This document shows positions 1,571 through 59,265 of a stretch of 64,000 bases of DNA, in pieces; the stretch's first letter is position 1, and every line of letters begins with the position of its first letter. The DNA is taken from contig CAZFZN010000031.1 in assembly GCA_964523105.1 (NCBI GenBank), forward strand, positions 17,683 through 81,682. The letters are read 5' to 3'. A program made the position numbers and the translations under genes. The DNA is from an uncultured Akkermansia sp. GTDB taxonomy: Bacteria > Verrucomicrobiota > Verrucomicrobiia > Verrucomicrobiales > V1-33. The notes beneath the pieces are model-generated. The model ran no database searches. It was not told where the DNA came from and was given only the letters and a program-made list of their open reading frames with translations.

Positions 1571-1632
1571 GCAGCGTGGACCTCCGGTCCACCCGCATCA
1601 CCCGCTTCATGTGGACCGGAGGTCCACGCTAC
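1571..1632. repeat. Inverted doublet of AGC-headed hairpin units (REPIN/BIME-like); right unit plus T-run probably terminates the upstream gene
   Basis: 1571 GCAGC-GTGGACC-tcc-GGTCCAC 1592, then an 18-nt spacer, then 1611 GTGGACC-gga-GGTCCAC-GCTAC 1632 followed by tttt. The arms are reverse complements except for one base in the head (GCAGC vs GTAGC). Confidence 0.8.
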
Positions 1633-10902: not shown

Positions 10903-11880
10903 ATGCACCGCCCGCTCGTCTTTTTGTTCGCCGCCCTTTCGGTATCACTCTCCGCTCAGGAACCCGCGCGCCCGGCCACTCCCGCAAAGCCCGCGCCGGC
11001 CGCCAAACGCCAGCCGCCGAAGAATCCGCCGCCGGCGCAGGCGAATGTCCCGTACGGCGACCACGCGCGCCAGGTGCTCGATTTTTGGAAAGCCGAAACC
11101 AAAGAGCCGGCCCCGCTGCTCTTCTTCATCCACGGCGGCGGCTGGCAAAACGGCGACAAGGCCGGGATCGCCGTCGCACCCTATCTGAAAGCGGGCATCT
11201 CCGTCGTCTCCATCAATTACCGCTATGTGCAGCAGGCGAAGGAGGCCGGAGTGACGCCTCCGGTGAAGGCCCCGCTGCACGACGCCGCCAGAGCGCTGCA
11301 GTTCGTCCGCAGCAAAGCGGGCGAATGGAACATCGACAAAAAGCGCATCGTGGCCAGCGGCGGCTCGGCCGGCGCCTGCAGCAGCCTCTGGCTCGCCTTT
11401 CATCCTGACATGGCCGATCCGAAAAGCGCAGACCCCGTGGCCCGGGAATCCACCCGCCTGTGGGGTGCCGGCGTGACGGGTGCCCAAACCACGCTCGATC
11501 CTCACCAAATGCGCGAATGGACGCCCAACAGCCGTTACGGCGGACACGCTTTCGGATTCACCGGCGACAAGGAGAAAGGCATTTCGCAGTTCGAGGAGTT
11601 CCATGCCAAACGGGACACCGTCAAAGAGTGGATCGCCGAGTACTCGCCCTATGCGCACGTCAGCGCGGATGATCCGCCGGTCTATTTGCTCTACAACGCG
11701 CCGCCCGCCCCCGGCAAGGAGGAGAAGGATCCCACGCACACCGCGAATTTCGGCGTCAAGCTGCAGGAGCACTGCCAGGCCAGCGGGGTGAAGTGCGAGC
11801 TGCGCTATCCCGGCGCCCCCGATGCCCCGCATGCTTCCACCACGGCGTGGATCATCGAACGGCTCAAGGCCGCGGAGTAG
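10903..11880 (+). CDS. Secreted alpha/beta hydrolase (esterase/lipase-like)
   Basis: Signal peptide MHRPLVFLFAALSVSLSAQE, oxyanion motif HGGGW and nucleophile elbow GGSAGA. Confidence 0.8.
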   Translation: MHRPLVFLFAALSVSLSAQEPARPATPAKPAPAAKRQPPKNPPPAQANVPYGDHARQVLDFWKAETKEPAPLLFFIHGGGWQNGDKAGIAVAPYLKAGISVVSINYRYVQQAKEAGVTPPVKAPLHDAARALQFVRSKAGEWNIDKKRIVASGGSAGACSSLWLAFHPDMADPKSADPVARESTRLWGAGVTGAQTTLDPHQMREWTPNSRYGGHAFGFTGDKEKGISQFEEFHAKRDTVKEWIAEYSPYAHVSADDPPVYLLYNAPPAPGKEEKDPTHTANFGVKLQEHCQASGVKCELRYPGAPDAPHASTTAWIIERLKAAE

Positions 11881-14700: not shown

Positions 14701-15699
14701 GTGCCCACCACCATGAAAAAAATTCTCCCTGCTCTTCTCGCCGGCATCCTTTTGGGCGCCGGCGGCGTTTTTCTCTGGGCTCATGCGCGGGACGTGCGCG
14801 CGGGTGCCGATGCCGCAGAGGCTGCAGCGCAGCACAAACGCGACATGGATGCCCTGCGCCGTCAACTGGCGGGCGAACGCAGCACCGCCGCTTCACTGCG
14901 CCGTCAGCTGGCCGACTCCGGCGCGGATCAGCGGCCCCTGGAGCCGAATCAAATCGACATCCAGCGACTGCTCAATGACGCGCGCCCGCTCATGAAAAGC
15001 CTCGCCATTATGTTCGACGGCGAGCGCAAAAAGATGGCGGAGCGCCTGATCCGCGGCATCGCCGAACGTCTCGCCGAAGACATGGGCCTGACAGAGGAAC
15101 AGACCGCAGACATGATAGCGCACTTCATGAAGCTCGACGAGGAGAACTTCGCGAAAATCATGGCGATGCTCGACCGTCCCCTCACCATTCTGGACGTCTT
15201 CAGCGCCATGAAGGACATGGACCCCACGAAAAACATGGACGCCTACGTCGCAGCCAAACTGACACCGGAGCAGAAGCTGGCATGGGACAACCGGAAGCTG
15301 GAGTCGAAGGCCCAGCAGATCGAGCGCACCGCCAACTGGCAGCTGCGCCGCATGGAGCGCCTGAATCTGGACGAGACGCAGAAGGATCAGGTGTTCGACA
15401 TTCTGGTGAAGACTAATCCGCAGTACGACGCCAGCCTCGCCGTGGAGGGTCTGAGCGAAGAGGCCGGCACCTTCGAAGCCGGAAAGAGTCAGGACGAGGC
15501 CATCGCCGCGGTGCTGCGCGAAGATCAGCTGGCGGAATACCAGGCCATTCAGGAACGCCAGCAAACCGAACGCAGACGCTGGTCGGACGCCCTGGGCGGT
15601 TTCGACCCCATGCAGTTCTTCCAGGGCATGAACGGGATGAGCGGATTCGGCGCCGGCTTCGGCGGCATGGGCGGGCGCGGGCGACGCGGCGGCCGCTGA
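14701..15699 (+). CDS. Membrane-anchored coiled-coil protein with a G/M/F/R-rich tail
   Basis: N-terminal TM helix KKILPALLAGILLGAGGVFLW (the start may be ATG 14713). The body is helical. The tail reads GMNGMSGFGAGFGGMGGRGRRGGR. Confidence 0.6.
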   Translation: MPTTMKKILPALLAGILLGAGGVFLWAHARDVRAGADAAEAAAQHKRDMDALRRQLAGERSTAASLRRQLADSGADQRPLEPNQIDIQRLLNDARPLMKSLAIMFDGERKKMAERLIRGIAERLAEDMGLTEEQTADMIAHFMKLDEENFAKIMAMLDRPLTILDVFSAMKDMDPTKNMDAYVAAKLTPEQKLAWDNRKLESKAQQIERTANWQLRRMERLNLDETQKDQVFDILVKTNPQYDASLAVEGLSEEAGTFEAGKSQDEAIAAVLREDQLAEYQAIQERQQTERRRWSDALGGFDPMQFFQGMNGMSGFGAGFGGMGGRGRRGGR

Positions 15700-15999
15700 G
15701 CGTCGAACACCCGGAGCAGGCGAAATTACGCCGGCAAGGCCTGCGCCGGCAAGGCCTGCGCCGGAAGCCGCAGCAGGGCCGTCCCGGTCTTGTCGTTAGG
15801 CATGACCAGGTCCAGACGAGGACGGCCTTCGTGCGGTTCCTTTTGGTTCTCGTGCGCCATCCCTCGTGCGCCGGAGCTTTCGATAATTTCGCGTGCCGTG
15901 CCCCGGGGAAGCGACATGATGTCCCCGAATTTGTCCGTGAATATCCGCCCGCTCCGCGCGTCTCTGCCGCGGGAAATAACGCCCGCCCTCCTCCGCTCC

Positions 16000-23353: not shown

Positions 23354-25837
23354 ATGAGCACTGTTCTTCGCACTCTCACACTCCTCGCCCTCTCAGTTCC
23401 CGCCGCCGCGGCGCCCGAGGCGTTTGAAATCGGACCCGACCGGCTGGCGGATTTGCCGAAAGGCAAGGAAGCGGACGGGATCATCGGGGACTTCGTGATG
23501 CGCAGCGATACGGTGGAGCTGACCATCAGCGGCAATCTTCCGGAGCGTCGCGCGAACATGAGCACGTTCTACGGCGCGGACGGCGTCACGCCGGGCTGCC
23601 TCTACGATCTTTGTGCGCGCGGGTCGGCGAATGACCAGATCACTGTCTTCACGCCTGGCAATCAGCGCGGACCGGTGACCTGGGTGCGCATCACCAAAGA
23701 CGGCAGGGACGGCGAGGCGGAAATTGAGACCGTGACCACCGCGGCGAACAACAAGGGCCTCTACAAACGCCATGCCTGGCGCCTGCGCGACGGCCGGAAC
23801 GGCGTGGAGGTGGAAACGACGCTGCGCAACGAATCCGCCGCGGCCATGACCGTGCCGGCGGATGACAAGATTACCAACTTCCCCTCCAACGGCAGCGACG
23901 GTCCGTATTTCTGGACGGCCAGCGTGGACCCGCGCGACAAAGCGGGCTACGCTGTCGAGCCGATCCGCGGCGACGCGAAGCTCGCGCCCGGAGAAGAGAA
24001 AAAGTGGACGCGCTTCCTCGCGGTCGCCTCCTCACCCGCCGCGGCGCTCGGCCTTCTGCGCGAGCAGAAAGGCGGCGCGGGCCGCGTCAGCCTGACGTTG
24101 AAGGGGCCGGACGGAAAACCGGTGACGACGGCGACGGTCGTGGTGGTCAACGGCGGCAAAGAAGCGCCGGCATGGCCTGACAAGGACGGCAAGGTCGTCT
24201 TCGCCGTCGCGCCCGGCTCGCCCGAACTGCGCATCACCGATCACGGCCGCGCGCCGGTGAAGTTCACGCTGCCCGTCGCGGCCGGCCAGAACGCGGAACG
24301 CGAAGTCTCCCTCGGTGCGCCGGCGGCGGTCGTCTTCAACATCACTGAGGACGGCTCCGGCCGTTCCCTGCCCTGCAAGGCGCAGTTTCTGCCAAAGGAG
24401 GGAACTCCGAAAGTGGACCTCGGCCCCAACAACCGCGCCCACGGCTGCGTGGACCAGTGGCATTCGGAGAACGGCAGCTTCACCGTGCCGCTCGCGCCGG
24501 GCAGTTACACGGTCGTGGTGACGCGCGGGCCGGAGTATTCGCTCATCCGTCAGGAAGTGACGCTGGCCGCCGCGCAGCAGGTGGAGGTAAAGGGCGTGCT
24601 GAAGCGCGTGGTCGATACCACCGGCTGGGTCGGCACCGATTTCCACAACCACAGCACGCCCAGCGGCGACAACACCTGCGGCACCGACGACCGCATCATC
24701 AATCTCGCCGCCGAGCACATCGAGTTTGCACCGACCACGGAACACAACCGCCTCTACGACTGGGCACCCCACATTGAGAAGCTGCAGCTGAACGAGTTCC
24801 TCTCCACCATCACCGGCATGGAACTCACCGGCAACAATCAGCACCTCAACTGCTTCCCGCTCACGCCGGAGCCAGGCAAACAGAACAGCGGCGCGCCGGT
24901 GTGGAACTTCGATCCGCGCATCTCCGCCATCACGCTGCGGGACTGGCAGAAGCCGGATCCGGACCGGTGGATTCAGGTGAACCATCCTGACCTCCAGCGC
25001 GTCTTCAATGATGCCGATGCCAATGGCGAAAAGGACCGCGGCTATTACGGCGTCACGCAATACGTGGACGCCTGGGAGATCGAGAATTTCATCGATCCGG
25101 GAATTCTCTCCGACGCTCCGTTCCGCATCGTGGAGAACGCACCGGGCAGTCCGCGCACGGTGCGATTCCAGCGCGAGTTCATTTACCTGCAGCTGCTCAA
25201 CCAGGGTCATCGCCTCGTAGCCACCGCCGTGGCCGATGCGCATACTGTTCACGGCAACGGCGCGGGCGCATGGCGCGTCTATTTGCCCTCCGGCACCGAC
25301 GAGCCTGCCAAAATCGACTGGCGGGAAATGTCCCGCGCCACCAAAGCCGGCCGCGGTGTGCTCAGCACCGGGCCGTTCCTCACCGTCACCGCCAACGGCC
25401 AGCCGTCAGGCTCGGAAATCAAGTCGGAGGGCAAGCCCGTAACCCTCAAAGTGCGCGTGCAGTGCACCGACTGGCTCGACATTGACCGCGTGCAGATTCT
25501 GGTGAACAGCCGGCAGCCGAAGGAGCTGAACTTCACGCGCCAGACGCACCCGGACCTCTTCGGAAGCGGCACGGTGAAGTTTGACAGGGAGATTCCCGTG
25601 GAGCTGAAGGAGGACGCGCACCTCATCGTGGTCGCGCTCAATTCCGCTGGCGATCTCAAGCAGTGGTTCGGCACCAGTTCGCAAAAGGACCTCAAGCCGC
25701 AGGCATGGACGAATCCGACCTATGTGGACGTGAACGGCGACGGCTTCAAAGCGAACGGCGACACGCTCGGGTTCGACATTCCCACGACGAAGATGACCGT
25801 GGAAGAGGCGCAGCGCATCCTGCAACTGGCGCATTGA
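23354..25837 (+). CDS. Secreted PHP/CehA-McbA-like metallohydrolase-domain protein
   Basis: ATG 23354 gives the signal peptide MSTVLRTLTLLALSVPAAAAP. The N-terminal half is beta-rich. Central FHNHSTPSGDN..TEHN metal-ligand-like motifs are present. Confidence 0.6.
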   Translation: MSTVLRTLTLLALSVPAAAAPEAFEIGPDRLADLPKGKEADGIIGDFVMRSDTVELTISGNLPERRANMSTFYGADGVTPGCLYDLCARGSANDQITVFTPGNQRGPVTWVRITKDGRDGEAEIETVTTAANNKGLYKRHAWRLRDGRNGVEVETTLRNESAAAMTVPADDKITNFPSNGSDGPYFWTASVDPRDKAGYAVEPIRGDAKLAPGEEKKWTRFLAVASSPAAALGLLREQKGGAGRVSLTLKGPDGKPVTTATVVVVNGGKEAPAWPDKDGKVVFAVAPGSPELRITDHGRAPVKFTLPVAAGQNAEREVSLGAPAAVVFNITEDGSGRSLPCKAQFLPKEGTPKVDLGPNNRAHGCVDQWHSENGSFTVPLAPGSYTVVVTRGPEYSLIRQEVTLAAAQQVEVKGVLKRVVDTTGWVGTDFHNHSTPSGDNTCGTDDRIINLAAEHIEFAPTTEHNRLYDWAPHIEKLQLNEFLSTITGMELTGNNQHLNCFPLTPEPGKQNSGAPVWNFDPRISAITLRDWQKPDPDRWIQVNHPDLQRVFNDADANGEKDRGYYGVTQYVDAWEIENFIDPGILSDAPFRIVENAPGSPRTVRFQREFIYLQLLNQGHRLVATAVADAHTVHGNGAGAWRVYLPSGTDEPAKIDWREMSRATKAGRGVLSTGPFLTVTANGQPSGSEIKSEGKPVTLKVRVQCTDWLDIDRVQILVNSRQPKELNFTRQTHPDLFGSGTVKFDREIPVELKEDAHLIVVALNSAGDLKQWFGTSSQKDLKPQAWTNPTYVDVNGDGFKANGDTLGFDIPTTKMTVEEAQRILQLAH

Positions 25838-25874
25838 GCCGGGCAGTTCAGTTAAGTCGCAGCCGGGCAGTGCC

Positions 25875-25949
25875 TTAGCAAGGCCGTCCCGGCCTTGAGA
25901 GCAACCACCGTATCGGAGCGAAACGACAAGGCCGGGACGGCCTTGCTAC
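25875..25949. repeat. Inverted doublet of AGC-headed hairpin units between convergent genes
   Basis: 25875 TTAGC-AAGGCCG-tcc-CGGCCTT-g 25897, then a 29-nt spacer, then 25927 c-AAGGCCG-gga-CGGCCTT-GCTAC 25949. A degenerate single unit (GCAGC-AGGGCCG-tcc-CGGTCTT) lies at 15770..15792. Confidence 0.8.
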
Positions 25950-25991
25950 GGGCGCTCGCGGCGTCCGGCGGCAACTTTTCAGATTACCGCT

Positions 25992-27134
25992 TTAAGCAGA
26001 CCGGCGCAGTAGTTTCGCCGCGACGGCCGAAAGCAGCAAGGCACCGAGCAGCACTGCGCTGCACGCCGCCGTGAACCGGAGAAATTTCTCCGCCTTGCGC
26101 GCCGGCACCGCGACCATCCGAGGCTCGCTAATCACTCGCGTGGGACGCAGGACCACACCCTCGCGGATTCTCAAATCCTCTGCCTCCATGCGCAGCTTTT
26201 GCAGCAGGGCGAGGGCGCTGTCATAGCGCACCTGGGCGGCATCCAGTTCCGAGCGGTTGAGCAGGCGCAGGTCTTTTTCTTTGACCGACTCCGCGGCGAG
26301 CGCGGCATACTCCTCCAGCGCCGCCTTCAGGGCCGCCTGCTCCACCGCAAGCGCCGCTTTCGCAGGATCGGCTTCCGGCGTCGCTTTGAGGCGCGCTTCC
26401 AGCATCACCAGATCGGCGCGCGACCTGGCGAGCCTGGCTGAGAATTCCGCGGCCTGCTGTTCGGCAGCGGCCACTTCGGCGGGCATCAGGGCGTGCCTTC
26501 TCATGAGATCGTTGCGCTCAAGGCGCGCTTTATCCACGGTGACGACCTGCAGATTGATCCTCGCCTCCAGAGCCTGGCTGAAGCGGCGGGACCGGTCCAT
26601 CGCCACATCGATCAGGTCTTCGTGCAGCGCCTGCGCCAGAAATCCGGCCTGCGCCGCCGGTGATTTGCGGTGTTCATGAACGGTAATGGTCAGATGCGGG
26701 CCGCTGAGACTGACTTCCGTATGCTTTGCGAGCGCCTCCCGCGCATCATCCGCCAACTGCGGCTCGGCGGTGCCGCCCAGCTTTACCGCCCGGCGCAGCA
26801 CTTCACCGGAAGTCACCCGCGCCGCGTGGGCCTGCATCTCCGCCTCCGAATTCTGTTCGAGAAACTCCACCACCACGCGCCCGGCCTCCTCCTTCGGTTC
26901 CAGCCAGCGCAGGGTGCCGAAGCTCAACGCGCACACGAGCGCGAGCAGGAAGACCAGAAACGGAATGCAGCCGCAGCGTTCCCTGCAGCGCGGAGGAACC
27001 GCGGGAGCGGCGGCAGCGGCCACGGGAAGCGGCGGCGGGGGTTGCGGATTCATAACCGGGGGAGCCTGGCAGGTCGCTCCCCTGACCGGAAGAACAAAAT
27101 GCCCCCCCGGCGAACGGAGAGGCCCGCCTGCCAC
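25992..27134 (-). CDS. Two-TM coiled-coil membrane protein (polysaccharide co-polymerase-like topology)
   Basis: TM helices near the N-terminus (IPFLVFLLALVCALSF) and at the C-terminus (AACSAVLLGALLLSAVAA) flank a long helical A/E/L/R region. The start could be ATG 27053. Confidence 0.55.
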   Translation of the reverse strand: MAGGPLRSPGGHFVLPVRGATCQAPPVMNPQPPPPLPVAAAAAPAVPPRCRERCGCIPFLVFLLALVCALSFGTLRWLEPKEEAGRVVVEFLEQNSEAEMQAHAARVTSGEVLRRAVKLGGTAEPQLADDAREALAKHTEVSLSGPHLTITVHEHRKSPAAQAGFLAQALHEDLIDVAMDRSRRFSQALEARINLQVVTVDKARLERNDLMRRHALMPAEVAAAEQQAAEFSARLARSRADLVMLEARLKATPEADPAKAALAVEQAALKAALEEYAALAAESVKEKDLRLLNRSELDAAQVRYDSALALLQKLRMEAEDLRIREGVVLRPTRVISEPRMVAVPARKAEKFLRFTAACSAVLLGALLLSAVAAKLLRRSA

Positions 27135-27151
27135 GAAATGAATTAGGCCGC

Positions 27152-27649
27152 CTAGCGGACTTTTTGCACAGCAGGCAGCAGCAGCCCTATCAGGATGGCG
27201 ATGATGGCGATGACCACGAGTCCCGGCGGACGGTTTGCCGCATCCTCAAAACGCCCGGTGCTGGAGACGACGGTGCCGTCGCTGAATTCCACGGAATCGC
27301 GCCACGAAAAATGAATGCCGCCGGCACCCTCGGCATCCGCGTCCATGGTCGCGATTCCCACCAGGAGATCGCCGTTGGCGGCTTCAAAAACAACAGGGCC
27401 GGCGCCATGCAGAGCGGTGGATCCCTCTCCCGGAACAAATTCGACTTCGCCGGTGGCGGTGAACCGCCCCAAATGCGAGGCGGTTCCAGTGATGGAAAAT
27501 GGCGACGGCCCCTCGGCTGAGAAATCGATGGTGCCCTGCCAGTTGTGCAGTTTGACGGCTGATTTGCCGTATGACGACGTGGTCGTTGCCGTGAAGAACG
27601 CGCAGACCGTAATGAGCGCGACGATTTGCCTCCAGAGTGATGTTTTCAT
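27152..27649 (-). CDS. Secreted beta-rich protein ending in a pseudopilin-like hydrophobic segment
   Basis: ATG 27649 gives [19 protein letters not shown]. The C-terminus [23 protein letters not shown] is followed immediately by TAG GCG GCC TAA. Confidence 0.6.
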   Translation of the reverse strand: [165 protein letters not shown]

Positions 27650-27814
27650 GGTGTGGCGATTTGGTTGGAGTGCGGTGATAAGGGATTTCGGCGACAAGTG
27701 TCAAGCTTTCCATTTTCTTCCCGGGCGGCCGACAGTGCGCCCCGCCGCCCGAATCCGGAACGAATGGAGCATCCGTGTTTGACGCCGCTCTCTCCTCACG
27801 TTGAATGCCCCGCC

Positions 27815-29122
27815 ATGAAATCGCTCCCCCTCACATTTGCCGCCATTCTCTTCTCCGTCGCCACGCTCCCCGCCGAGGACTGGCCGCAATGGCTCGGGCC
27901 GCGCGGTGATTCCTCATGGAACGACACCGGACTGGTGACGAAGTTTCCCACGGACGGGCCGAAGGTGCTGTGGCGCGCGCCGGTCGCTAACGGCTACAGC
28001 GGACCCTCCGTGTCCGGCGGCAAAGTGTATGTCATGGACTACCAGGTGACGACCGGCAAAGTGGACGCCAACGCCTCGGCGCGCACGAAACTGACCGGCA
28101 AAGAGCGCGTGCTTTGCTTTGATGAAAAGACCGGCAAGGAACTCTGGTCGCACGGTTACGACTGCACCATCAATCTGAGTTTTCCCAACGGCCCGCGCTG
28201 CACTCCGGTGGTGAGCGGCGGCATGGTCTTTGCGCTGGGAGCGGAGGGACACCTCAGCGCGCTGAGCGCCGGGGACGGGAAAGTGGTTTGGGAGAAGGAA
28301 CTGAAGTCGGCATATAAATGCGAGTCGCCCATGTGGGGCTACGCCGCGACGCCGCTGGTCAGAGACGGTGTGCTCTACACGCTCGCCGGCGGCAAAGGCA
28401 GCGCCGTGGTGGCGCTCGACACGAAAACCGGCAAGGAAATCTGGCGCGCGCTGGACACGAAGGACATCGGCTATGCGCCGCCGGTGTGGACCAAACGCGA
28501 CGGCAAAGACGAACTGCTGGTATGGCACAGCGAGTCGCTCAACGGTCTCGATCCCGCGAACGGCAAGGTGCGCTGGAGCCAGCCGTTCGGCACTTTCTAT
28601 GGCATGTCCATCATGGCCCCGCGCGTCACTGCGGACGGCATCTTCATCGGCGGCATCATTGCCAAGTCCGCGCTGGTGAAGCCTGGCGACGGCAAAGCGG
28701 AACTGGTGTGGGAAGGCACGCCAAAACTGGCACTCGCGCCCAAGAACGGCACCCCCCTCGTGGTCGGCGAGCATGTTTATGGCTGCGACATGGATGGCGA
28801 CCTGCGCTGCTTCAAGTCGGCGACGGGTGAGCGGCTCTGGTCCACCCTCGACGTGCTCAGCGGCAAAAAAGTGAACAGCGGCACCTTTTTCATGGCGCGC
28901 ACGCCGCAGCAATGGGTGCTCTTCAATGACGACGGCGAACTCATCCTGGCTGACCTCAGTCCGTCAGGCTACAAAGAGAACGCGCGCGCCAAAATCCTGA
29001 GCGCCGACACGCCCTCCATGGGCGGCCGCACCGTCGTCTGGAGTCACCCCGCCTTTGCCAACCGCTGCGTCTTCGCGCGCAATGACAAGGAACTGATCTG
29101 CGTCTCGCTCGCGGCGGAGTAA
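27815..29122 (+). CDS. Secreted PQQ-like beta-propeller repeat protein (BamB-like fold)
   Basis: ATG 27815 gives MKSLPLTFAAILFSVATLPAEDWPQW. Repeated G.vy....dg.l.al....G..vW blades are present. Confidence 0.8.
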   Translation: MKSLPLTFAAILFSVATLPAEDWPQWLGPRGDSSWNDTGLVTKFPTDGPKVLWRAPVANGYSGPSVSGGKVYVMDYQVTTGKVDANASARTKLTGKERVLCFDEKTGKELWSHGYDCTINLSFPNGPRCTPVVSGGMVFALGAEGHLSALSAGDGKVVWEKELKSAYKCESPMWGYAATPLVRDGVLYTLAGGKGSAVVALDTKTGKEIWRALDTKDIGYAPPVWTKRDGKDELLVWHSESLNGLDPANGKVRWSQPFGTFYGMSIMAPRVTADGIFIGGIIAKSALVKPGDGKAELVWEGTPKLALAPKNGTPLVVGEHVYGCDMDGDLRCFKSATGERLWSTLDVLSGKKVNSGTFFMARTPQQWVLFNDDGELILADLSPSGYKENARAKILSADTPSMGGRTVVWSHPAFANRCVFARNDKELICVSLAAE

Positions 29123-29124
29123 AA

Positions 29125-29183
29125 GTGGTCCGCACAGTCTCTGTGCGGTTGGGCTCCACCGCACAGAGGACTGTGCGGACCAC
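29125..29183. repeat. Inverted doublet of hairpin units filling the gap between convergent genes
   Basis: 29125 GTGGT-CCGCACAG-tctc-TGTGCGG-t 29149, then an 8-nt spacer, then 29158 a-CCGCACAG-aggac-TGTGCGG-ACCAC 29183. There is a one-base indel in the loop. Confidence 0.8.
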
Positions 29184-29189
29184 CCTGGC

Positions 29190-30173
29190 TCACACCACGC
29201 ACCGCGGGCAGTGCTCCACCCAATGACCAGGCGTCAGTTCAACATACGGAGGCCGTTCGTTTACCAAAGGTTCGCCCGGAGCATCCACATTCCGCGGGCA
29301 GAAGCGGCAGCCGGGCGGCATTTTGTCGAGTGATGGCACCATGCCTTCGATGATCGGGAGCCGCGTCCGCGGCGTGCTGTCGAGCCGGGGAATGCTGGCC
29401 AGCAGCCCGCGGGTGTAGGCGTGGCGGGGATGGCCGAACAGTTCCGTAGCGGCAGCCCGCTCCACGATGCGCCCCGCATACATGACCACCACTTCATCGC
29501 ACATCTCCGCAATGACGCCGAGGTCGTGCGTGATGAGCAGCACGCTCATGCCCATGCTGCGCTGGAGGTCGCGGATGAGGTCCAGGATCTGCGCCTGCAC
29601 GGTGACATCGAGGGCGGTGGTCGGCTCGTCGGCAATGAGGAGCGAGGGATTGAGCGCCATGGCGATGGCAATGCCGACGCGCTGGCGCATCCCGCCGCTA
29701 AGCTGGTGCGGATATTCATGCACCCGAATGTCCGGCGCGGGAATCTGCACGCGGCGCAGCGCTTCGATGGCTTTGTCCTGCGCATCGCGGGCGTTGAGAC
29801 CCAGATGGAGGCGGAAGACTTCGGCGACTTGACGCCCCACGCGATGGACTGGATTGAGCGAGGTCATCGGCTCCTGGAAGATCATGCCCATGCGGTGGCC
29901 GCGGAGCTTCCACATTTCCTCCTCCCCGGCCTTCACGAGGTCGCGGCCGTCGAAATGAATACTGCCTCCGGTGATGACGCCGCTCGGATAGGGCAGCAGG
30001 CGCATGACACTCATGGCGGTGACGCTTTTGCCGCAGCCGCTTTCTCCGACGAGGCCGACGACTTTGCCGCGCGGCACGGAAAAGCTCACGCCGTCCACGG
30101 CGGTGACGCGCCCGGCGTCGGTGTCGAAGGCGACGCGCAGGTCTTTGATGTCGAGCAGCGGGGCCTCGCTCAT
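29190..30173 (-). CDS. ABC transporter ATP-binding protein (OppD/DppD type)
   Basis: The start [14 protein letters not shown] overlaps the upstream stop as ATGA. Walker A GESGCGKS, signature LSGGMRQR, Walker [13 protein letters not shown]. Confidence 0.9.
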
Positions 30174-32179
30174 GCGTCCTTCTCCTTCCATTGGTCGTAC
30201 GTCAGGATCTGCGGCGGGAAGGTGCGGCCCTCCTTCATGGCGCGCTGGGTTTCCTCCTTCATCTTCGTGTCTATCCAGTAGAGGTGAAACTCCTCCCAGT
30301 CGCGGCTGGTGCGGGCATTGAAGCCTTTGGGAAAACGCATCCAGCGCCAGTGGGCTACGCGGTAGTAGTCCTGCACCCACGCGGGCACGAAGGCGGCGTC
30401 ATCGTGGAGCCACGCCATCATTTCGCGCGCCAGACGCACAATCTCCGGCATGTTGTCGGCCTTCTCGTAGGCTTCGATGAGCGCGTCCAGTTCCTTGCTC
30501 GCGGTCATGGTTTCGTTGTTCGTATCCGTCTTGATGCTTCCGTCCTCCTTGTAGGCGTTGGAGCTGTGCCACGTCTCGCGGAAACGCGGATACAGTTCCA
30601 CTGAGACGTTTTTGGCTCCAAACGAAAGATCGTGCTTCTTCTCATCGGCCTTCTTCCACGCGGCGGTCTGTTCAATGATTTCCAGGTTGAATTCGACGCC
30701 CGCTTTGACGGCTTCCTTCTTCAGAATGGTGAGCACATCGGCGAACATCTTGTAGCCGGTGGTCATGGTGAACGACAGACGCTCCTGCTTATCATTCACA
30801 AAGATGCCGTCCGGCCCGCGCTGCGTGAACCCGGCCTGAGCAAAGAGTTTTTCCGCGGCGGGGATGTCGAAGGCGCGGGCCTTGATGCCGGGGAAGGTGA
30901 CTTCCGGGTAGCCGTCGCTGCTGGTCTGCATCCGCGTGGCGTCGCCTTTGAAGACTTCGCGGATGGCGAGGTCCCAGTTCATGGCGTGCTGGATGCCCTG
31001 ACGGATAAGTTTTTCCTTCAACAGCGGGCGCGAGCAGTTGATGCTGAAGCCCCACGTCACGCGCGGGATTTGATTGTAGAAGAGCACCTTCTCGATGTAG
31101 CCCTTCGCCACCTCCGGCGCGTCGTGCGGCAGCTTGCGGTGCCAGTAGTCGGACAGTCGCATGGTGAAGATGTCCAGCTCCCCTTTGCGGAAGACCTCGA
31201 AGGCCTTGTTCATGTCGCGGATGGTCACGAAACTCATGCGGTCCACGTTGTAGCGGTAGCGCATGTGCTTCCGGTCCGCGGCCCACCAGTTCGACACTTT
31301 GGTGAGGAGAATGCGGCGGCCTTTGTCCACGTTTTCCGGGCGCACTTCGTAGGCGCCGGTGGTGGGCTCGAATTTCCACTGATACACGTCCTGCCAGTCG
31401 TCGGCGAGTTCGAGATAGAAGTGAACCGGCACGGGCCGGACGCTGGTGGCCTTGTAGAGCAGGTCCGGCTTCTTGTCGCGCATGGAAATGGCGATGGTGA
31501 GATCGTCGAATTTCGTGATCCGCGTGAAGGTGTCAGTGTAAAACTGCTGATACCACAGATCGGCGGTGTAGTTGCACCGCATGAAGTAGAAGCAGAACAG
31601 ATAGTCGTCGGCGCGGACGGGCACGCCGTCACTGAATGTCGCGGCGGGATCGAGCTTGAAGTAAATGGTGCGCCCGTCGGGATCGAAGGCCCACTTTTCC
31701 GCCAGCTCGGCATACCACTGGAAGTTGTCCGGGTGCTGACTGGCCAGTTTCATCGCATTGGCATCGAGGATGTATTTGCGGAACGCACCGCTGGCATCCG
31801 GGCCGATAAACCGCAGCGTGCGCGCGAAGTCGGGCATGTAATGGTAATACGTGCCACCCTTCTTCGCGGCAGGGTCGCCGAATTCCGGCACGTTCGCGCC
31901 GTCCTCCCATTTCAAATCAGCGGGCACTTTGTCCGGCGTGGAGAAGATGAAGAAGTCCGGATAGCGGCGGAAGAACTCCATTGCCTCGTCCGGCAGCGGG
32001 GCGCGCTCGGCTTTGTAATTGAACGGGCGCTCGTTACGGCGGCAGGCGGAGAGCGCCGCGGCGGCGGCTCCGGCGCTGAGTTGCAGCGCCCGGCGGCGGG
32101 AGAGCGTGGCCCGGGCTTCCAGCCCGAAGGAGGGAGACTGCGGGCTGGAAGCCTGAGCCACTGTCTGGTCAGCGTTCAT
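30170..32179 (-). CDS. ABC transporter substrate-binding protein, family 5 (peptide/opine type), unusually large
   Basis: The start MNADQ is followed by [19 protein letters not shown] (a twin-arginine-like signal plus lipobox). About 670 aa. ATGA overlap with the upstream permease stop. Confidence 0.8.
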
Positions 32180-33237
32180 CGGTAGGTGGTGAATTTGCGC
32201 GGATCGTAGGCCTCGCGCACGGCTTCGCCGACAAAGGTGACGAGCAGCAGCACAGCGACGAGGCCGCTGAACGCCGAGAGCACGATCCACTCTGCGTCTT
32301 TGTTATCGAGGCCCACCTGGAGCATCTCGCCCCAGCTCGGCGTAGGGCGCGGCAGGCCGAAATTGAGGAAATCCAGCGCTGTCAGCGCCGTGATGCCCGC
32401 GGCGACAGTGAACGGCAAAAAGGTGACAAGCGTGGAGATTGTGTTAGGCAGGATGTGGCGGAAGATGAGCCGCAACGGCCCCGCGCCGGCGAGCCGCGCT
32501 GAGGCTACATAGTCGCGCGCCTTTTCCTTGAGCGTGGCCGTGCGGAGGAACCATGCTTTCGTCGTCCACGCGAAGATGACCATGATGAACAGCAGGATCA
32601 GGATGCGCGGAGCGGTGCCCACATCCGCAGGAACGAGCGAGATGCCGATCATGACGATGTAGAGGAACGGGATGTTGGCCCAGATTTCCACGATGCGTTG
32701 ACCGATGAGGTCCACCGCGCCGCCGAGATAGCCCATGAGGCAGCCGATGACGATGGCGACGAGCATGGTGAGCAGCGTGTAACTCAGGGAGAAGAGGATG
32801 ACGTTTCGGAATCCATAAACCATGCGCGAGAGCACATCGCGCCCGGTGACATCGGTGCCCAGCCAGTGCCGCCGCGCGCCATCGGGCGGCTGCGGATGGC
32901 TGACGCCTTCGCGGAAGTCGCTGTCCTGCGGTCCCCAGGGGATAAGCGGCATGAGCACCCAGTTGCCCTGATCCTCCGTTTTAAAGCGGTCCTGCAGCGC
33001 GCGGTAGTTCGTCTCGTACTTGTAGCTCTCACCGAAGGTCTCGCCGGGAATGATCGCGCCGTAGGTGGGGAAGTAAGTCTTGCCCTCGTAGCGCACGAGC
33101 AGCGCGCGGCCGTTGACCCACAATTCCGCCAGCAGGGCCAGCACAATGAGCAGCACCAGCAGAACGAGCGACCAGTAGCCCCGCTTGATGGAGCGGAAGC
33201 GCTGGAGGCGTTTGCGGGTGAGCGGGTTGAGCGGCAT
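32176..33237 (-). CDS. ABC transporter permease (OppC/DppC type)
   Basis: ATG 33237 gives MPLNPLTRKRLQRFRS. Six TM helices and the EAA-like loop (ASARLAGAGPLRLIFRHILPN). Confidence 0.85.
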   Translation of the reverse strand: MPLNPLTRKRLQRFRSIKRGYWSLVLLVLLIVLALLAELWVNGRALLVRYEGKTYFPTYGAIIPGETFGESYKYETNYRALQDRFKTEDQGNWVLMPLIPWGPQDSDFREGVSHPQPPDGARRHWLGTDVTGRDVLSRMVYGFRNVILFSLSYTLLTMLVAIVIGCLMGYLGGAVDLIGQRIVEIWANIPFLYIVMIGISLVPADVGTAPRILILLFIMVIFAWTTKAWFLRTATLKEKARDYVASARLAGAGPLRLIFRHILPNTISTLVTFLPFTVAAGITALTALDFLNFGLPRPTPSWGEMLQVGLDNKDAEWIVLSAFSGLVAVLLLVTFVGEAVREAYDPRKFTTYR

Positions 33238-37793: not shown

Positions 37794-37840
37794 GACACCG
37801 GCAGCGTAGCGCACCGGGCTCGATGAAAAGAAGAAAACCG

Positions 37841-37960
37841 CGGATGGACACGGATGGACGCCGCTGCAAGGCACCGCCTTCCCCATCCCTCCCGCCCCGC
37901 CGCTTCCTCCTTTCCTCTCAGACAAAAGTATCCGTGTTCATCCGTGTCCATCCGTGGTTC
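37841..37960. repeat. Inverted arrays of 10-nt tandem units flanking a pyrimidine-rich 70-nt spacer
   Basis: 37841 cggatggaca-cggatggacg 37860 faces 37931 tccgtgttca-tccgtgtcca-tccgtggttc 37960. The element lies in a divergent promoter region. Confidence 0.7.
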
Positions 37961-37975
37961 TTGAACTCCTCACTC

Positions 37976-41887: not shown

Positions 41888-41972
41888 GTAGCGCGGGCAT
41901 GGCGCAGCCTGCCCGTGTTCGCTCCCTGCCTCGGAAAACAAACGCGGCCAGCCTGCGGCATGACCGCGCTAC
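41888..41972. repeat. Inverted doublet of GTAGC-headed hairpin units (same family as 3956..3985)
   Basis: 41888 GTAGC-GCGGGCA-tggcgcagcc-TGCCCGT 41916 and 41944 GCGGCCA-gcctgcggca-TGACCGC-GCTAC 41972. Confidence 0.75.
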
Positions 41973-45448: not shown

Positions 45449-47374
45449 ATGAAACCCGTCCGCTTTTGGCCCCTGGCCACCGTCATTATCCTGCCCGTGC
45501 TCGTGCTGGCGGCGGCTTCGGTTTATGGGCTCATCCAACGCGGGAAGGCCACGCGGGTCGAAGCCGCCGCGCAGTGCCGGATCGAGTATGTGGATTCCCT
45601 CTGGGGCAATGTTTGGGGTGAGGCTGTGGAGGCGTCGCCGCGGGTGGTGCTTTACGATGACCCGCCGCGGCCCCGCGAGAAGGTGCCGTTCCCAGGCGGG
45701 CTCTTGGACCTGGATGACGGCCCCTTTCCCACGCCGGAACAGCAGCGGGAAGGCGAGTCGCGGCTGGACAAGGCCGTGACGGAAAAAGACCTCGCCGCCC
45801 TGCGCAGCCTCATGGAGGAAAAGGATCACGCTCCATGGTTCACCGCGTCCGGCATTCCCATCCCGGCGCTCGCCGCATGGCACTGGATCCAGACCAGGCT
45901 GGACGCGCCGGCCTCCATTCCCCCCGCGGATGTCGCGCTGGCAGTGCGCGTGCTGACGGTGGAGGCACCCTCGGTGCTCACCACGACGCTGCTGGATAAG
46001 TTGTCAGCGCATTTTCCCGACGCGGTCGCCGAGGGACGCCGCGTCTGGCAACTCATGGAAGTGCGGCGCGCCGCCTTTCGCCGCACCTCGCCGCTGCGAT
46101 ACCGGCGGGGCAACGGCGCCTACGGCCCTCCCCAGGTCGTGCCCCTGCCTCACAATTCCCTGGAAGTGACCGGCCTGCCGGTGGACGAAGTGAAAAACCG
46201 CTGGCCGGGCCTGATCTGGACGGGCCGGCAGCGGCCGCTAACGTTTGCCCTCGTGATGCCCGGCCATCGTGGCGAGGAACGCGTGCTGCTGGAGGCGGAA
46301 CTGCACGCCGCTGCGCGCACCCTGGCCGAAAAGTCCGTGCCCCTGCTGCCGCCCTGGGCGACCGCCGGTGTGACGCTGAAGCCGGAGAGTTTCATCCGCT
46401 CCGGCATTCGCCTGCCGGAAATCCCGCTGGGCACGGAAGTCGGCCAGCCCCTGACAACGCGCGAGAGCAGCCTCTGGACGGTAACCGCCGGCGCGAAGGA
46501 GAGAGGCGCGATTTTTAAAGACTACGAGCGCCTCGTGCTGTGGGCCGCTGCCTTCATCCTCACCAGTCTGCTCACCGCCCTGCTCGGCCTGCGTTACATC
46601 CGCCGAACGCTGCACAAGGAGCGCCGCCTGGGAGAGATGAAGAGCCAGTTTGTCAGCAGCGTGAGTCATGAACTGCGCGCCCCCATTGGCTCCCTGCGCC
46701 TCATGGCCGAGGGACTGGCCAGCGGCAAAGTGTCAGGCAAAGCCGCGGACGAATTCCACCGCCTCATGGCCGGCGAAGGCGCGCGCCTTTCCTCACTCAT
46801 CGAAAACGTGCTCGACTTCGCCCGCATCGAACAGGGCCGGAAGCAGTATCACCTGGCCGAAACCGACGTGGCCGCGCTGGTGCAGGACGCCGTGAAGCTC
46901 ATGCAGCCGCAGGCTGAGGCGCGCGGATTGAAGATCACCTGCGAGTGCGCGCCACTGCCTTTCATTCCGAAAGTGGACGCCGGCGCCGTGCAGCAGGCGC
47001 TGATCAATCTGCTCGATAACGCCATAAAATTCTCGCCGGCCAACGTAGCTCGACATTCCAATGTCGAGTCGGGCGCGGACTCGACATTGGAATGTCGAGC
47101 TACAATCCACGTCCGCCTCGCTCCTGACGCCCCGGGGTGGTCCCTCTCAGTAACCGATCAGGGCGGGGGCATCCCGGAAGAGGAACACGCCCGCATCTTC
47201 GAGCGCTTCTACCGCCTGGGAAATGAACTGCGCCGCGAAACCACCGGCACCGGCATCGGTTTGGCCATTGTGAAGCACATCGTCGAAGGCCACGGCGGTC
47301 GCGTGAGGGTGCAGTCTGAAATGGGGAAAGGCAGTGAGTTCAGAATGGAGTTCACACAAAAGGCTGAAGGCTAA
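45449..47374 (+). CDS. Sensor histidine kinase (two TM helices, ~340-aa periplasmic domain, HisKA + HATPase_c)
   Basis: H-box SHELRAPI, N-box LLDNAIKFSP, G-boxes DQGGGI and GTGIGLAIV. Confidence 0.9.
   Translation: MKPVRFWPLATVIILPVLVLAAASVYGLIQRGKATRVEAAAQCRIEYVDSLWGNVWGEAVEASPRVVLYDDPPRPREKVPFPGGLLDLDDGPFPTPEQQREGESRLDKAVTEKDLAALRSLMEEKDHAPWFTASGIPIPALAAWHWIQTRLDAPASIPPADVALAVRVLTVEAPSVLTTTLLDKLSAHFPDAVAEGRRVWQLMEVRRAAFRRTSPLRYRRGNGAYGPPQVVPLPHNSLEVTGLPVDEVKNRWPGLIWTGRQRPLTFALVMPGHRGEERVLLEAELHAAARTLAEKSVPLLPPWATAGVTLKPESFIRSGIRLPEIPLGTEVGQPLTTRESSLWTVTAGAKERGAIFKDYERLVLWAAAFILTSLLTALLGLRYIRRTLHKERRLGEMKSQFVSSVSHELRAPIGSLRLMAEGLASGKVSGKAADEFHRLMAGEGARLSSLIENVLDFARIEQGRKQYHLAETDVAALVQDAVKLMQPQAEARGLKITCECAPLPFIPKVDAGAVQQALINLLDNAIKFSPANVARHSNVESGADSTLECRATIHVRLAPDAPGWSLSVTDQGGGIPEEEHARIFERFYRLGNELRRETTGTGIGLAIVKHIVEGHGGRVRVQSEMGKGSEFRMEFTQKAEG
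47045..47103. repeat. Perfect 59-nt doublet of GTAGC-headed hairpins embedded in frame in the kinase CDS
   Basis: 47045 GTAGCTCGACATTCCAATGTCGAGTC, then gggcgcg, then GACTCGACATTGGAATGTCGAGCTAC 47103. The 26-nt arms are exact reverse complements. Confidence 0.9.
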
Positions 47375-47445
47375 AGGCTGAGGTATGAAACCTCCGATGC
47401 GCGCTCCTTTCAGCCTTCAGCCTTCATACTTCATACTTCATACTT
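47360..47445. repeat. Inverted heptamer arrays (AAGGCTG)x3 / (CAGCCTT)x2-3 followed by (TTCATAC)x3
   Basis: 47360 aaggctgaaggctaaaggctgagg, then a 22-nt loop, then 47406 cctttcagccttcagcctt, then ttcatac x3 ending 6 nt before the response-regulator ATG. Confidence 0.7.
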
Positions 47446-49439: not shown

Positions 49440-49514
49440 GGAGCGTGGAGTTGCACTCCGCCCAAAGAAACCCGCGAACCAATGCCGCCCCGGCGGAGTG
49501 CAACTCCGCGCTCC
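49440..49514. repeat. Inverted doublet of AGC-headed hairpin units
   Basis: 49440 GGAGC-GTGGAGT-tgc-ACTCCGC-c 49462, then a 29-nt spacer, then 49492 g-GCGGAGT-gca-ACTCCGC-GCTCC 49514. Confidence 0.75.
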
Positions 49515-56484: not shown

Positions 56485-56670
56485 CATGGCCCGGACGGGC
56501 CATCAGATTCAGCCCACGGCAGCTTCGCTGCCGTGGGATAGCTTTCTGTGAACTCCCGCGCCCCGGAGCGGGCGCCAGAGACTTCTCCGGATGCCCTCTC
56601 GCGCCCGCTCCGGGGCGCAGGATATGACACCAACGCCCCCACGGCAGCCGGGCTGCCGTGGGCTGAATCT
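56485..56670. repeat. Composite nested palindrome (three hairpin-unit types)
   Basis: ATGGCCC-gga-CGGGCCAT. Outer pair: agattCAGC-CCACGGCAGC-ttc-GCTGCCGTGG (56505..56537) and CCACGGCAGC-cgg-GCTGCCGTGG-GCTGaatct (56638..56670). Inner pair: GCGCCCCGGAGCGGGCGC (56558..56575) and GCGCCCGCTCCGGGGCGC (56601..56618). Confidence 0.75.
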
Positions 56671-59123: not shown

Positions 59124-59178
59124 GTGTTGCTTTCTTTGTTTTGTGTTTTGGAAAGCGGGCAGCCGGACTTCGGATGAA

Positions 59179-59244
59179 GTGTTCAGTTTTCAGATTTCAG
59201 TTTTCAGATGCACGACCTGAAGACTGAAACCTGAACACTGAAAC
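59179..59244 (-). promoter_or_regulatory. Long imperfect hairpin in the pnp 5' leader built from inverted heptamer arrays
   Basis: The minus strand reads (GUUUCAG UGUUCAG GUUUCAG UCUUCAG) gucgugcau (CUGAAAA CUGAAAU CUGAAAA CUGAACA). It lies 56-121 nt upstream of the pnp ATG and downstream of the rpsO terminator. Confidence 0.5.
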
Positions 59245-59265
59245 CTCCGGCGGCCCGCCGGGATA

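Follow-up and report, generated by a model that had tools for sequence, protein, structure and literature searches.

Introduction

GTAG-tagged repetitive extragenic palindromes (REPs) have been described in the Planctomycetes-Verrucomicrobia-Chlamydiae (PVC) superphylum, where Opitutus terrae is "highly enriched" in them (Di Nocera, De Gregorio & Rocco 2013, BMC Genomics 14:522, PMC3733652). Several families co-reside in that genome (GTAG-17 to GTAG-20), with degenerate heads that include GTGG in GTAG-20, and it holds the largest number of in-frame intragenic copies (PMC3733652). The same study reported REP dimers in both head-to-head and tail-to-tail arrangement, a preference for positions after genes (between convergent and same-direction pairs), heads that provide stop codons, and genes for REP-associated tyrosine transposases (RAYTs) that are flanked by the repeats. 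Binding and cleavage on single-stranded DNA have been shown only for the Escherichia coli enzyme TnpA_REP, which binds GTAG base-specifically, needs it for cleavage and does not contact the hairpin loop (Messing et al. 2012, PMC3479197). A later survey ties abundant repeats only to its RAYT groups 2 and 3, and its text, searched by term, yielded no mention of PVC phyla (Bertels et al. 2017, PMC5581495). Here we describe eight inverted doublets of short hairpins in 64,000 nt of an uncultured Akkermansia sp. (contig CAZFZN010000031.1); this whole stretch is called the window, and all claims about it are limited to these 64 kb.

We consider it probable, at roughly 85%, that the doublets are GTAG-tagged REPs arranged as tail-to-tail dimers on a Verrucomicrobiales chromosome, that is, non-autonomous elements of the REPIN (REP doublet forming hairpin) or BIME (bacterial interspersed mosaic element) type. 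This reading is carried by the anatomy of the doublets, their statistics, the dispersal of their families, the flanking of a RAYT gene by one family (F3), and orthologous sites that lack them.

Results

Anatomy and statistics of the doublets

The sequence-only reading of this window had listed six inverted doublets, all of which were recovered with the coordinates, heads, stems and loops that it gave; the list was incomplete, two further doublets lying at 32106-32161 and 41888-41972. The doublets, a degenerate single unit and one host gene are as follows (z, folding as single-stranded DNA).

F1 doublet, 1571..1632, unstranded: GCAGC-GTGGACC-TCC-GGTCCAC, 18 nt, then GTGGACC-GGA-GGTCCAC-GCTAC; arms 100% complementary; z -8.7.
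F2 degenerate single unit, 15770..15792, + strand: GCAGCAGGGCCGTCCCGGTCTTG; 20 of 23 positions match the focal unit.
F2 focal doublet, 25875..25949, unstranded: TTAGC-AAGGCCG-TCC-CGGCCTT-G, 29 nt, C-AAGGCCG-GGA-CGGCCTT-GCTAC; z -8.7.
F6 doublet, 29125..29183, unstranded: GTGGT-CCGCACAG-TCT-CTGTGCGG and an inverted copy ending ACCAC; z -10.4.
F8 doublet, 32106..32161, unstranded, absent from the earlier list: GTGGC-CCGGGCT-TCC-AGCCCG and an inverted copy ending GCCAC; z -6.9.
F7 doublet, 41888..41972, unstranded, absent from the earlier list: GTAGC at both outer ends; arms 84% complementary; z -4.8.
F3 host gene, 45449..47374, + strand: intact HisKA/HATPase_c sensor kinase.
F3 doublet, 47045..47103, unstranded: GTAGC-TCGACAT-TCCA-ATGTCGA-G, 11 nt, C-TCGACAT-TGGA-ATGTCGA-GCTAC; arms 100% complementary; z -11.8.
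F4 doublet, 49440..49514, unstranded: GGAGC-GYGGAGT-TGC-ACTCCGC and an inverted copy 29 nt away; z -7.5.
F5 doublet, 56505..56670, unstranded: TCAGC-CCACGGCAGC-TTC-GCTGCCGTGG; inverted copy at a distance of 100 nt.

All eight doublets, F1 included, have their heads outward (tail-to-tail). Units are 21-29 nt long, with perfect stems of 7-11 bp and loops of 3-4 nt, except in F7, where each arm is a hairpin with a 6-7 bp stem and a 10-nt loop. A GTAGC head stands at 1632, 25949, 41888/41972 and 47045/47103 and a GTGG head at 29125 and 32106, so that GTAG or its GTGG variant is present in six of the eight. Of the six families first listed, only three have the GTAGC head, the others reading GGAGC, TCAGC and GTGGT. 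That a single arm keeps GTAGC in two doublets was borne out (the other arm is GCAGC at 1571 and TTAGC at 25875). The proposed spacing of 7-29 nt between arms fails at 56505-56670, where the arms lie 100 nt apart around an unrelated nested repeat and differ in their loops (TTC and CCG). We regard membership of the GTAG system as uncertain for F4, given its GGAGC head, and as doubtful for F5.

Perfect hairpins as such (stem of at least 7 bp, loop of 3-6 nt) are not enriched, with 30 in the window against 27.7 +/- 5.7 in 100 dinucleotide-preserving shuffles. Three other counts are far above the shuffles. The window has 5 same-stem doublets no more than 200 nt apart, where shuffles average 0.05 and never exceed 1; it has 4 hairpins with a GTAG head, where they average 0.21 and never exceed 2; and it has 5 matches to GTAGC-N7-TCC against 0.64 +/- 0.77, a count that no shuffle reached. 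Matches to F2 with up to three mismatches occur three times in the window and in no shuffle. When folded as single-stranded DNA, the seven doublets tested form long hairpins (z from -4.8 to -11.8).

Six of the eight doublets are intergenic, one is in frame in the kinase gene and one is at the 5' end of a gene, exceptions of a sort already on record for REPs (PMC3733652). The earlier placement at gene ends does not apply to 47045-47103, which is inside the kinase open reading frame (ORF). Five lie 3-125 nt past stop codons; three of these separate convergent gene pairs, and the other two separate pairs that run in the same direction. F1 is 28 nt beyond the stop codon of a sulfatase gene (1543), the focal F2 doublet is flanked by convergent genes (stop codons 25837 and 25992), F6 occupies the 67-nt gap of another convergent pair (29122 and 29190), F7 lies between the stop codon of a P-type ATPase gene (41874) and the start of an ankyrin gene (41992), the end of F4 is 3 nt from the DUF1501 stop codon, and F5 separates convergent BatA-like and PNPase genes (stop codons 56381 and 56835). 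F8 is placed where the stop codon of an ABC permease gene (32176) adjoins the 5' end of a minus-strand SBP_bac_5 gene, and it reads there in frame as 19 residues before the twin-arginine signal (SRRRALQL). In this region (32106-32179, minus strand) the only plausible starts are ATG at 32179 and the GTG of the F8 head, so that the signal peptide seems to take its first residues from F8.

Dispersal of the families and a common head-and-loop grammar

The F2 unit, GTAGCAAGGCCGTCCCGGCCTTG, was sought in species-representative genomes with the pattern TAGCAAGGCCGNNNCGGCCTTG and is present in at least 98 genome stretches, almost all of them from PVC bacteria among the matches listed (Verrucomicrobiaceae, several metagenome-assembled genomes [MAGs] of Verrucomicrobiales, Kiritimatiellae, Victivallales and Lentisphaerae). 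Two features that the pattern left free are conserved in the 131 units listed: G precedes TAGC in 95% of them, and the loop reads TCC in 65% or TCT in 31%, together 96%. Heads-out inverted pairs are present and heads-in pairs are not, again among the matches listed. At least 120 metagenome stretches carry the F3 unit, GTAGCTCGACATTCCAATGTCGAG; among the matches listed, heads-out doublets with spacers of 4-79 nt hold 214 of 258 units (83%), and a subfamily of about 20 doublets has a related 21-nt spacer, most other F3 spacers being mutually unrelated. Tens of F2 and F3 stretches come from single MAGs (e.g., C1_MAG_00061 and RUG12186). In the window, F2 has three units and each other family one doublet. 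Second copies of the window families were sought in 1.67 Mb of fetched related loci, where an F8-type family (GTGGC-CYGGGCT-TCC) was found again in one other genome, inserted in the kinase ortholog of locus L105, and where F1 had no further copy; scans of viral contigs yielded neither F1 nor F2. We assume, from their grammar, that F1, F4, F5, F6 and F7 are repeat families.

F2 units elsewhere also form tandem arrays (L020 7056-7223, L072 2591-2966, L043 11-144, L033 2263-2402 and L058 52-227), and a rumen MAG holds F2 heterodimers with the compensatory stem variant AAGGGCG-TCCC-CGCCCTT. Array periods range from 40 to 118 nt and differ between arrays, while the spacers within an array copy each other; because of these two properties we take the arrays to be local tandem duplications and reject their interpretation as CRISPR-like (clustered regularly interspaced short palindromic repeat) arrays. 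Next to the degenerate F2 unit of the window, which lies in the gap 3' of the ORF ending at 15699, about 2.5 copies of a 15-nt tandem repeat (CGCCGGCAAGGCCTG, 15726-15765) stand directly upstream and have the half-stem CAAGGCC in common with it.

The proposal that a shared head and TCC loop accompany differing stems holds well past the window. Once F2 and F3 were removed, 1.7 Mb of related PVC DNA held 271 perfect hairpins with a GTRG head; 87 of these (32%), with 24 distinct stem cores, have a loop starting with TCC, compared to 2.7% of 4194 other hairpins (odds ratio 17, Fisher P = 7e-57, hits being mutually dependent and the set still holding F2 and F3 stem variants such as AAGGGCG and TCGACTT). 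As the contrast is large, we take the combination of a shared head and TCC loop with differing stems to be a true property of these elements.

Orthologous sites without doublets

Related genomes have a gene order in common (ATPase, ankyrin, kinase, regulator, DUF5077, DUF1501). At the ATPase-ankyrin gap, L105 reads GCGGCA|GACAAATGACAAA and the window GCGGCA[GTAGC...85 nt...GCTAC]AGTTTGAAATGACAAAA; L105 thus lacks exactly GTAGC...GCTAC, and the absent segment is bounded by the heads. The DUF5077-DUF1501 gap of L106 is 64 nt long and is without the doublet found at 49440. Together with the kinase site, three doublet positions (41888, 49440 and the kinase) therefore have empty orthologous sites. 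No flanking direct repeats, such as a target-site duplication would leave, were found at any doublet.

These comparisons bear on the possibility that the doublets are structures evolved locally at transcript ends, as terminators or 3' stabilizing hairpins, and that the likeness of their heads is coincidental. Such an origin would suit the five doublets that follow stop codons at 3-125 nt (three of them between convergent genes), the strong folding of those tested, and the five families with no second copy in the 1.67 Mb searched; further, REPs are known to act on mRNA stability and termination, as noted in the introduction of PMC3479197. However, identical 23-24 nt F2 and F3 units stand at hundreds of unrelated loci in other genomes, the head and loop are far above shuffles and conserved across families, one doublet is within coding sequence, and orthologous gaps exist without doublets. 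The doublets also lack T-tracts (TTTT follows only 1632), and a terminator scan of 25000-33000 left those at 25875, 29125 and 32106 uncalled while its total number of sites equaled the shuffle expectation. An RNA-level role is compatible with mobile REP dimers and leaves the origin of the doublets unexplained, and we consider a purely local origin very unlikely.

A copy in frame in a histidine kinase

The F3 doublet at 47045-47103 is translated in frame as VARHSNVESGADSTLECRAT (20 residues) within the kinase ORF, after the N-box helix and before the next beta-strand. An AlphaFold model of the kinase has a mean predicted local distance difference test (pLDDT) score of 80.5, and precisely at the insert it shows a coil (residues 533-547) of pLDDT below 50. 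Most kinase orthologs have nothing at the insert site. The same doublet with the same spacer is found in the kinase of L003, a soil metagenome contig (3303-3358), its second loop shortened by an in-frame 6-nt deletion; the L105 kinase (11500-11566) holds another family, GTGGC-TCGGGCT-TCC, a few codons from the F3 site. We rejected separate F3 insertions in the window and L003 kinases, because their common spacer (T..GGCGCGGA) occurs in none of 107 other F3 doublets, and we regard the two copies as one ancestral insertion. The doublet is identical at 51 of 53 positions (96%) in the two kinases, compared to 72.5% at 240 flanking coding positions (P = 9e-6). Candidate reasons for this extra conservation are (i) selection on the DNA or RNA hairpin, and (ii) homogenization from other copies. 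A REP copy in a tolerant surface loop of a protein may persist in frame.

The transposase associated with F3

The sequence-only reading had assigned the doublets to the REP/BIME/REPIN-RAYT system, and this assignment is supported by the dispersal of F2 and F3, by the empty sites and by a RayT-like Y1 gene between F3 copies. A RAYT flanked by the units was indeed found, for F3 and in other genomes: F3 doublets stand on both sides of a Y1 transposase ORF in five independent contigs (L187, L169, L186, L202 and L230, the last being an NCBI MAG locus with the exact F3 unit on both sides). The ORF encodes about 250 residues, with the HUH motif PNHVHV and the motifs WQTESFDRIVR and YIANNP. The flanked transposases match Pfam PF01797 (Y1_Tnp) at 30-33 bits (cut-off 23), and the best NCBIfam match is REP_Tyr_transpos, with 52.6 bits against 20.5 for the IS200 model. 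The transposase has 1944 homologues (E <= 1e-10), among them proteins that their sources call RayT and others that come from Prosthecobacter.

The repeats beside these homologues vary in stem and keep to the grammar described above. Homologues of 64% and 56% identity are flanked by TCGACTT-TCCA and TCGATTT-TCCA, respectively, and in Prosthecobacter fusiformis (L231) the repeat is GTAGC-TCGATTT-TCCA-AAATCGA, with the head and loop of F3 and compensatory changes in the stem. A homologue of 47% identity (L234) is flanked by GTAGG-TTGGGAC-TCC-GTCCCGAC, and one of 33% identity (L235) by GTAGG-CCTCACGC-TCC and GTAGC-CATCACGC-TCC. In three independent genomes, the RAYT gene ends in a TAG stop codon that the GTAG head of the downstream REP provides (L230 10739-10741, L233 10772-10774 and L234 10808-10810). 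The neighbors of the RAYT gene in the four long loci (L230, L231, L233 and L234) are housekeeping genes, with no adjacent tnpB.

The identity of this enzyme also speaks to the view that ordinary IS200/IS605 elements gave rise to the doublets as relics or palindrome-associated derivatives, copied by a multicopy TnpA (possibly with TnpB) rather than by a domesticated single-copy RAYT. In favor of this view, the flanking enzyme is of the same Pfam family (PF01797), its score falls short of the equivalog cut-off for RayT, and many homologues are found on very short contigs, which is typical of genes repeated in an assembly. Its preference for the RayT over the IS200 model, the WQxxxxD(R/H) and YIxxNP motifs of the published RAYT alignment, the housekeeping surroundings free of tnpB, and the REP-type GTAG head of the repeats all point instead to a RAYT, making an IS200/IS605 origin highly improbable. 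Hardly credible is a third possibility, that the doublets are miniature inverted-repeat transposable elements whose terminal inverted repeats are read by a DDE-type transposase, with the inner hairpins incidental: elements of 56-166 nt with terminal inverted repeats, no coding capacity and presence or absence at orthologous sites would fit, but target-site duplication is lacking (GCGGCA|GTAGC...GCTAC|AGTTTG, and likewise at other loci), each arm is a hairpin of its own with a GTAG foot, arms also occur singly and in same-orientation arrays, and the F3-flanked gene encodes a Y1/HUH rather than a DDE transposase.

Several members of this RAYT clade (P0147, P0151, P0154, P0157, P0207 and others) carry the label "type I restriction enzyme R subunit" at JGI, and NCBI gives the same label to the clade's Prosthecobacter fusiformis protein; being at odds with the Y1 transposase domain, it looks like a propagated misannotation. 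Most members come from contigs about 1 kb long, as would happen if flanking repeats interrupted assembly.

Two other candidates were set aside. An Oter_2468-type RAYT was considered as the enzyme of the window families; a search with its sequence gave only 25 relatives, and as the one in L108 is flanked by another REP, GTAGGGCTCGAGCTTGCTC, we rejected it in that role. The small RAYTs of the Opitutus type form a family apart, of small size and with a GTAG REP of its own (record look-ups of P0121, which is Oter_2468, and of P0232 returned no record). L021 (1-1742), in which two inverted F2 units stand 1 kb apart, was considered as an F2 REPtron and rejected, the genes inside being phage-like and none a RAYT. 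This 1.7-kb contig, binned as Saccharibacteria but probably a misbinned PVC prophage or integration-site fragment, encodes DNA-binding and peptidoglycan-hydrolase-like proteins and has a tRNA-like 3' end.

Observations that weigh against mobile REP dimers

A number of results count against interpreting the doublets as RAYT-mobilized REPs. No transposition event is demonstrated. RAYTs were searched for with a motif regular expression and with phmmer, using ten published RAYT and TIRYT (terminal inverted repeat-associated tyrosine transposase) sequences as well as the PVC RAYT; neither a RAYT nor any other Y1 transposase is present in the window, and no Y1 transposase was found in about 700 kb around 173 F2 units (some 100 genome loci). 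On this account F2 is without a demonstrated transposase. The score of the F3-flanked enzyme against the RayT model, 52.6 bits, is below the equivalog cut-off of 80 of that NCBIfam model. F2 elsewhere is mostly in same-orientation tandem arrays, resembling local duplication rather than transposition, and 101 of 107 F3 doublet spacers are distinct sequences, so that most F3 doublets are not recent whole-unit copies of each other. The 1.67 Mb of fetched related DNA yielded no second copy of F1, F4, F5, F6 or F7, and F4 (GGAGC) and F5 (TCAGC) have no GTAG-type head.

Genomic context and other repeats in the window

The window is chromosomal DNA of 64% G+C with ordinary housekeeping gene content, including genes for a sulfatase, a lipoamide dehydrogenase-type oxidoreductase, an oligopeptide ABC transporter, a P-type ATPase, an ankyrin/TPR protein, a two-component system, DUF1501 and BatA-like proteins and PNPase. 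Named sources of histidine kinase relatives are Verrucomicrobiales, Akkermansiaceae and Luteolibacter, and the exact window kinase protein is also recorded in two Logan assemblies; the source sequence is found as well in the Logan assemblies of ERR2586216 and ERR2586217. Rfam covariance models at gathering score matched nowhere in the window.

A second kind of inverted repeat, built of 5-6 nt tandem units (CTGAAN, AAGGCT, GCACTGA) and without a GTAG head, is found at the junction of kinase stop and regulator start in several genomes and also upstream of the PNPase gene (window 47360-47424 and 59175-59242; L106 2196-2270; L107 about 1915-1940; L003 3619-3678), with CTGAAACCTGAACACTGAAACCTCCG common to L106 and window 59217-59250. 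In a divergent intergenic region, 37834-37961 holds a 28-nt inverted repeat with CGGATGGACA direct repeats and arms 72 nt apart; this repeat lacks a GTAG head and is a possible regulatory site. The repeat nested in the F5 spacer (56554-56622) is an unrelated inverted repeat of the G+C-rich hairpin CGCGCCCCGGAGCGGGCGC and may be a case of one element inserted within another.

Discussion

To account for these doublets, we propose, by analogy with the enzyme family, that a single-copy RAYT of the Y1/HUH type (IS200/IS605 superfamily) would bind the folded hairpin on single-stranded DNA, reading the 5' GTAG head base-specifically and, in the PVC clade, probably the TCC loop as well. It would then cut and rejoin at the foot of the hairpin, so that GTAGC...GCTAC is copied or moved without target duplication. 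Because recognition would lie in the head and loop, stems would be free to drift by compensatory change, giving rise to many stem families with one grammar. Doublets just past stop codons may, in addition, fold in the transcript as 3' hairpins, a secondary role suggested by REPs elsewhere.

A bolder version of this model, toward which we are skeptical, is that the longer PVC RAYT clade (about 250 residues, with an insertion of about 60 residues after the first strand) reads a GTAG(C/G) head plus TCC(A) loop and is largely indifferent to the stem. If this were true, one transposase would mobilize many stem families, which would account for eight stems under one grammar in 64 kb and would run counter both to the pairing of each RAYT with a single REPIN family, as drawn from Pseudomonas, and to the uncontacted loop of the E. 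coli system. Continued RAYT-dependent copying, or gene conversion, would then keep the arms uniform, which would account for the 96% against 72.5% identity at the kinase.

The concrete sequences given here extend the REP/REPIN-RAYT system to Verrucomicrobiales and a large part of the PVC superphylum, and one family (F3) is linked to a specific RAYT clade with about 1900 detected homologues. The conserved head and loop with free stems offer a simple hypothesis of substrate recognition by these enzymes, while the kinase provides a clean example of a mobile palindrome turned into a lasting protein segment. For annotation, doublets account for odd intergenic hairpins and assembly breaks in PVC MAGs and can give neighboring genes stop codons, perhaps also start codons.

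Comparison with known systems

The closest described elements are the GTAG REPs of O. terrae, which belong to the same phylum and resemble those described here in the 6-9 bp stem that carries GTAG at one end, the presence of several families, the GTGG variant, dimers with spacers of 20-100 bp, post-coding location, in-frame dimers read as 20-30 amino acids, a REP-flanked RAYT and a TAG stop codon taken from the head. As co-resident families, inverted dimers, degenerate heads and in-frame copies are all known there, the sequence-only reading overstated how unusual the window is. The present stems appear to form other families; the host is of Verrucomicrobiales, not Opitutales, and the RAYT is longer (about 250 residues) and only a distant relative of Oter_2468.

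The REPINs of Pseudomonas fluorescens SBW25 (Bertels & Rainey 2011, PMC3116915) are likewise inverted REP pairs that form one long hairpin, are non-autonomous and are tied to a RAYT that the repeats flank. The F3 subfamily with its conserved 21-nt spacer is REPIN-like, as expected of a doublet that replicates whole, whereas most F3 spacers are unrelated to each other. Eight doublets with eight stems in 64 kb also contrast with the few abundant families of SBW25, and the RAYT clade here is from PVC bacteria.

As in the REP/BIME system of E. coli, a 5' GTAG stands at the foot of the hairpin, REP and inverted REP are paired, and the enzyme is of the Y1/HUH type. E. coli REPs, however, are imperfect hairpins of 35-40 nt in which a bulge is essential for binding, whereas the stems here are perfect and of 7-8 bp, with a 3-4 nt loop conserved across families. 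This conserved loop suggests a mode of recognition unlike that of E. coli.

The F3 copy in the kinase is comparable to the Rickettsia palindromic elements, which are in-frame palindromes inside intact genes, tolerated in surface loops; those elements, however, are CGTC-tagged or longer and belong to Alphaproteobacteria, while F3 is a GTAG REP dimer. The doublets are thus of a kind already described, to which the present analysis adds (i) the particular families and their wide PVC distribution, (ii) the tie of one family to a longer RAYT clade, (iii) a quantitative head-plus-loop rule, and (iv) the conserved kinase insertion.

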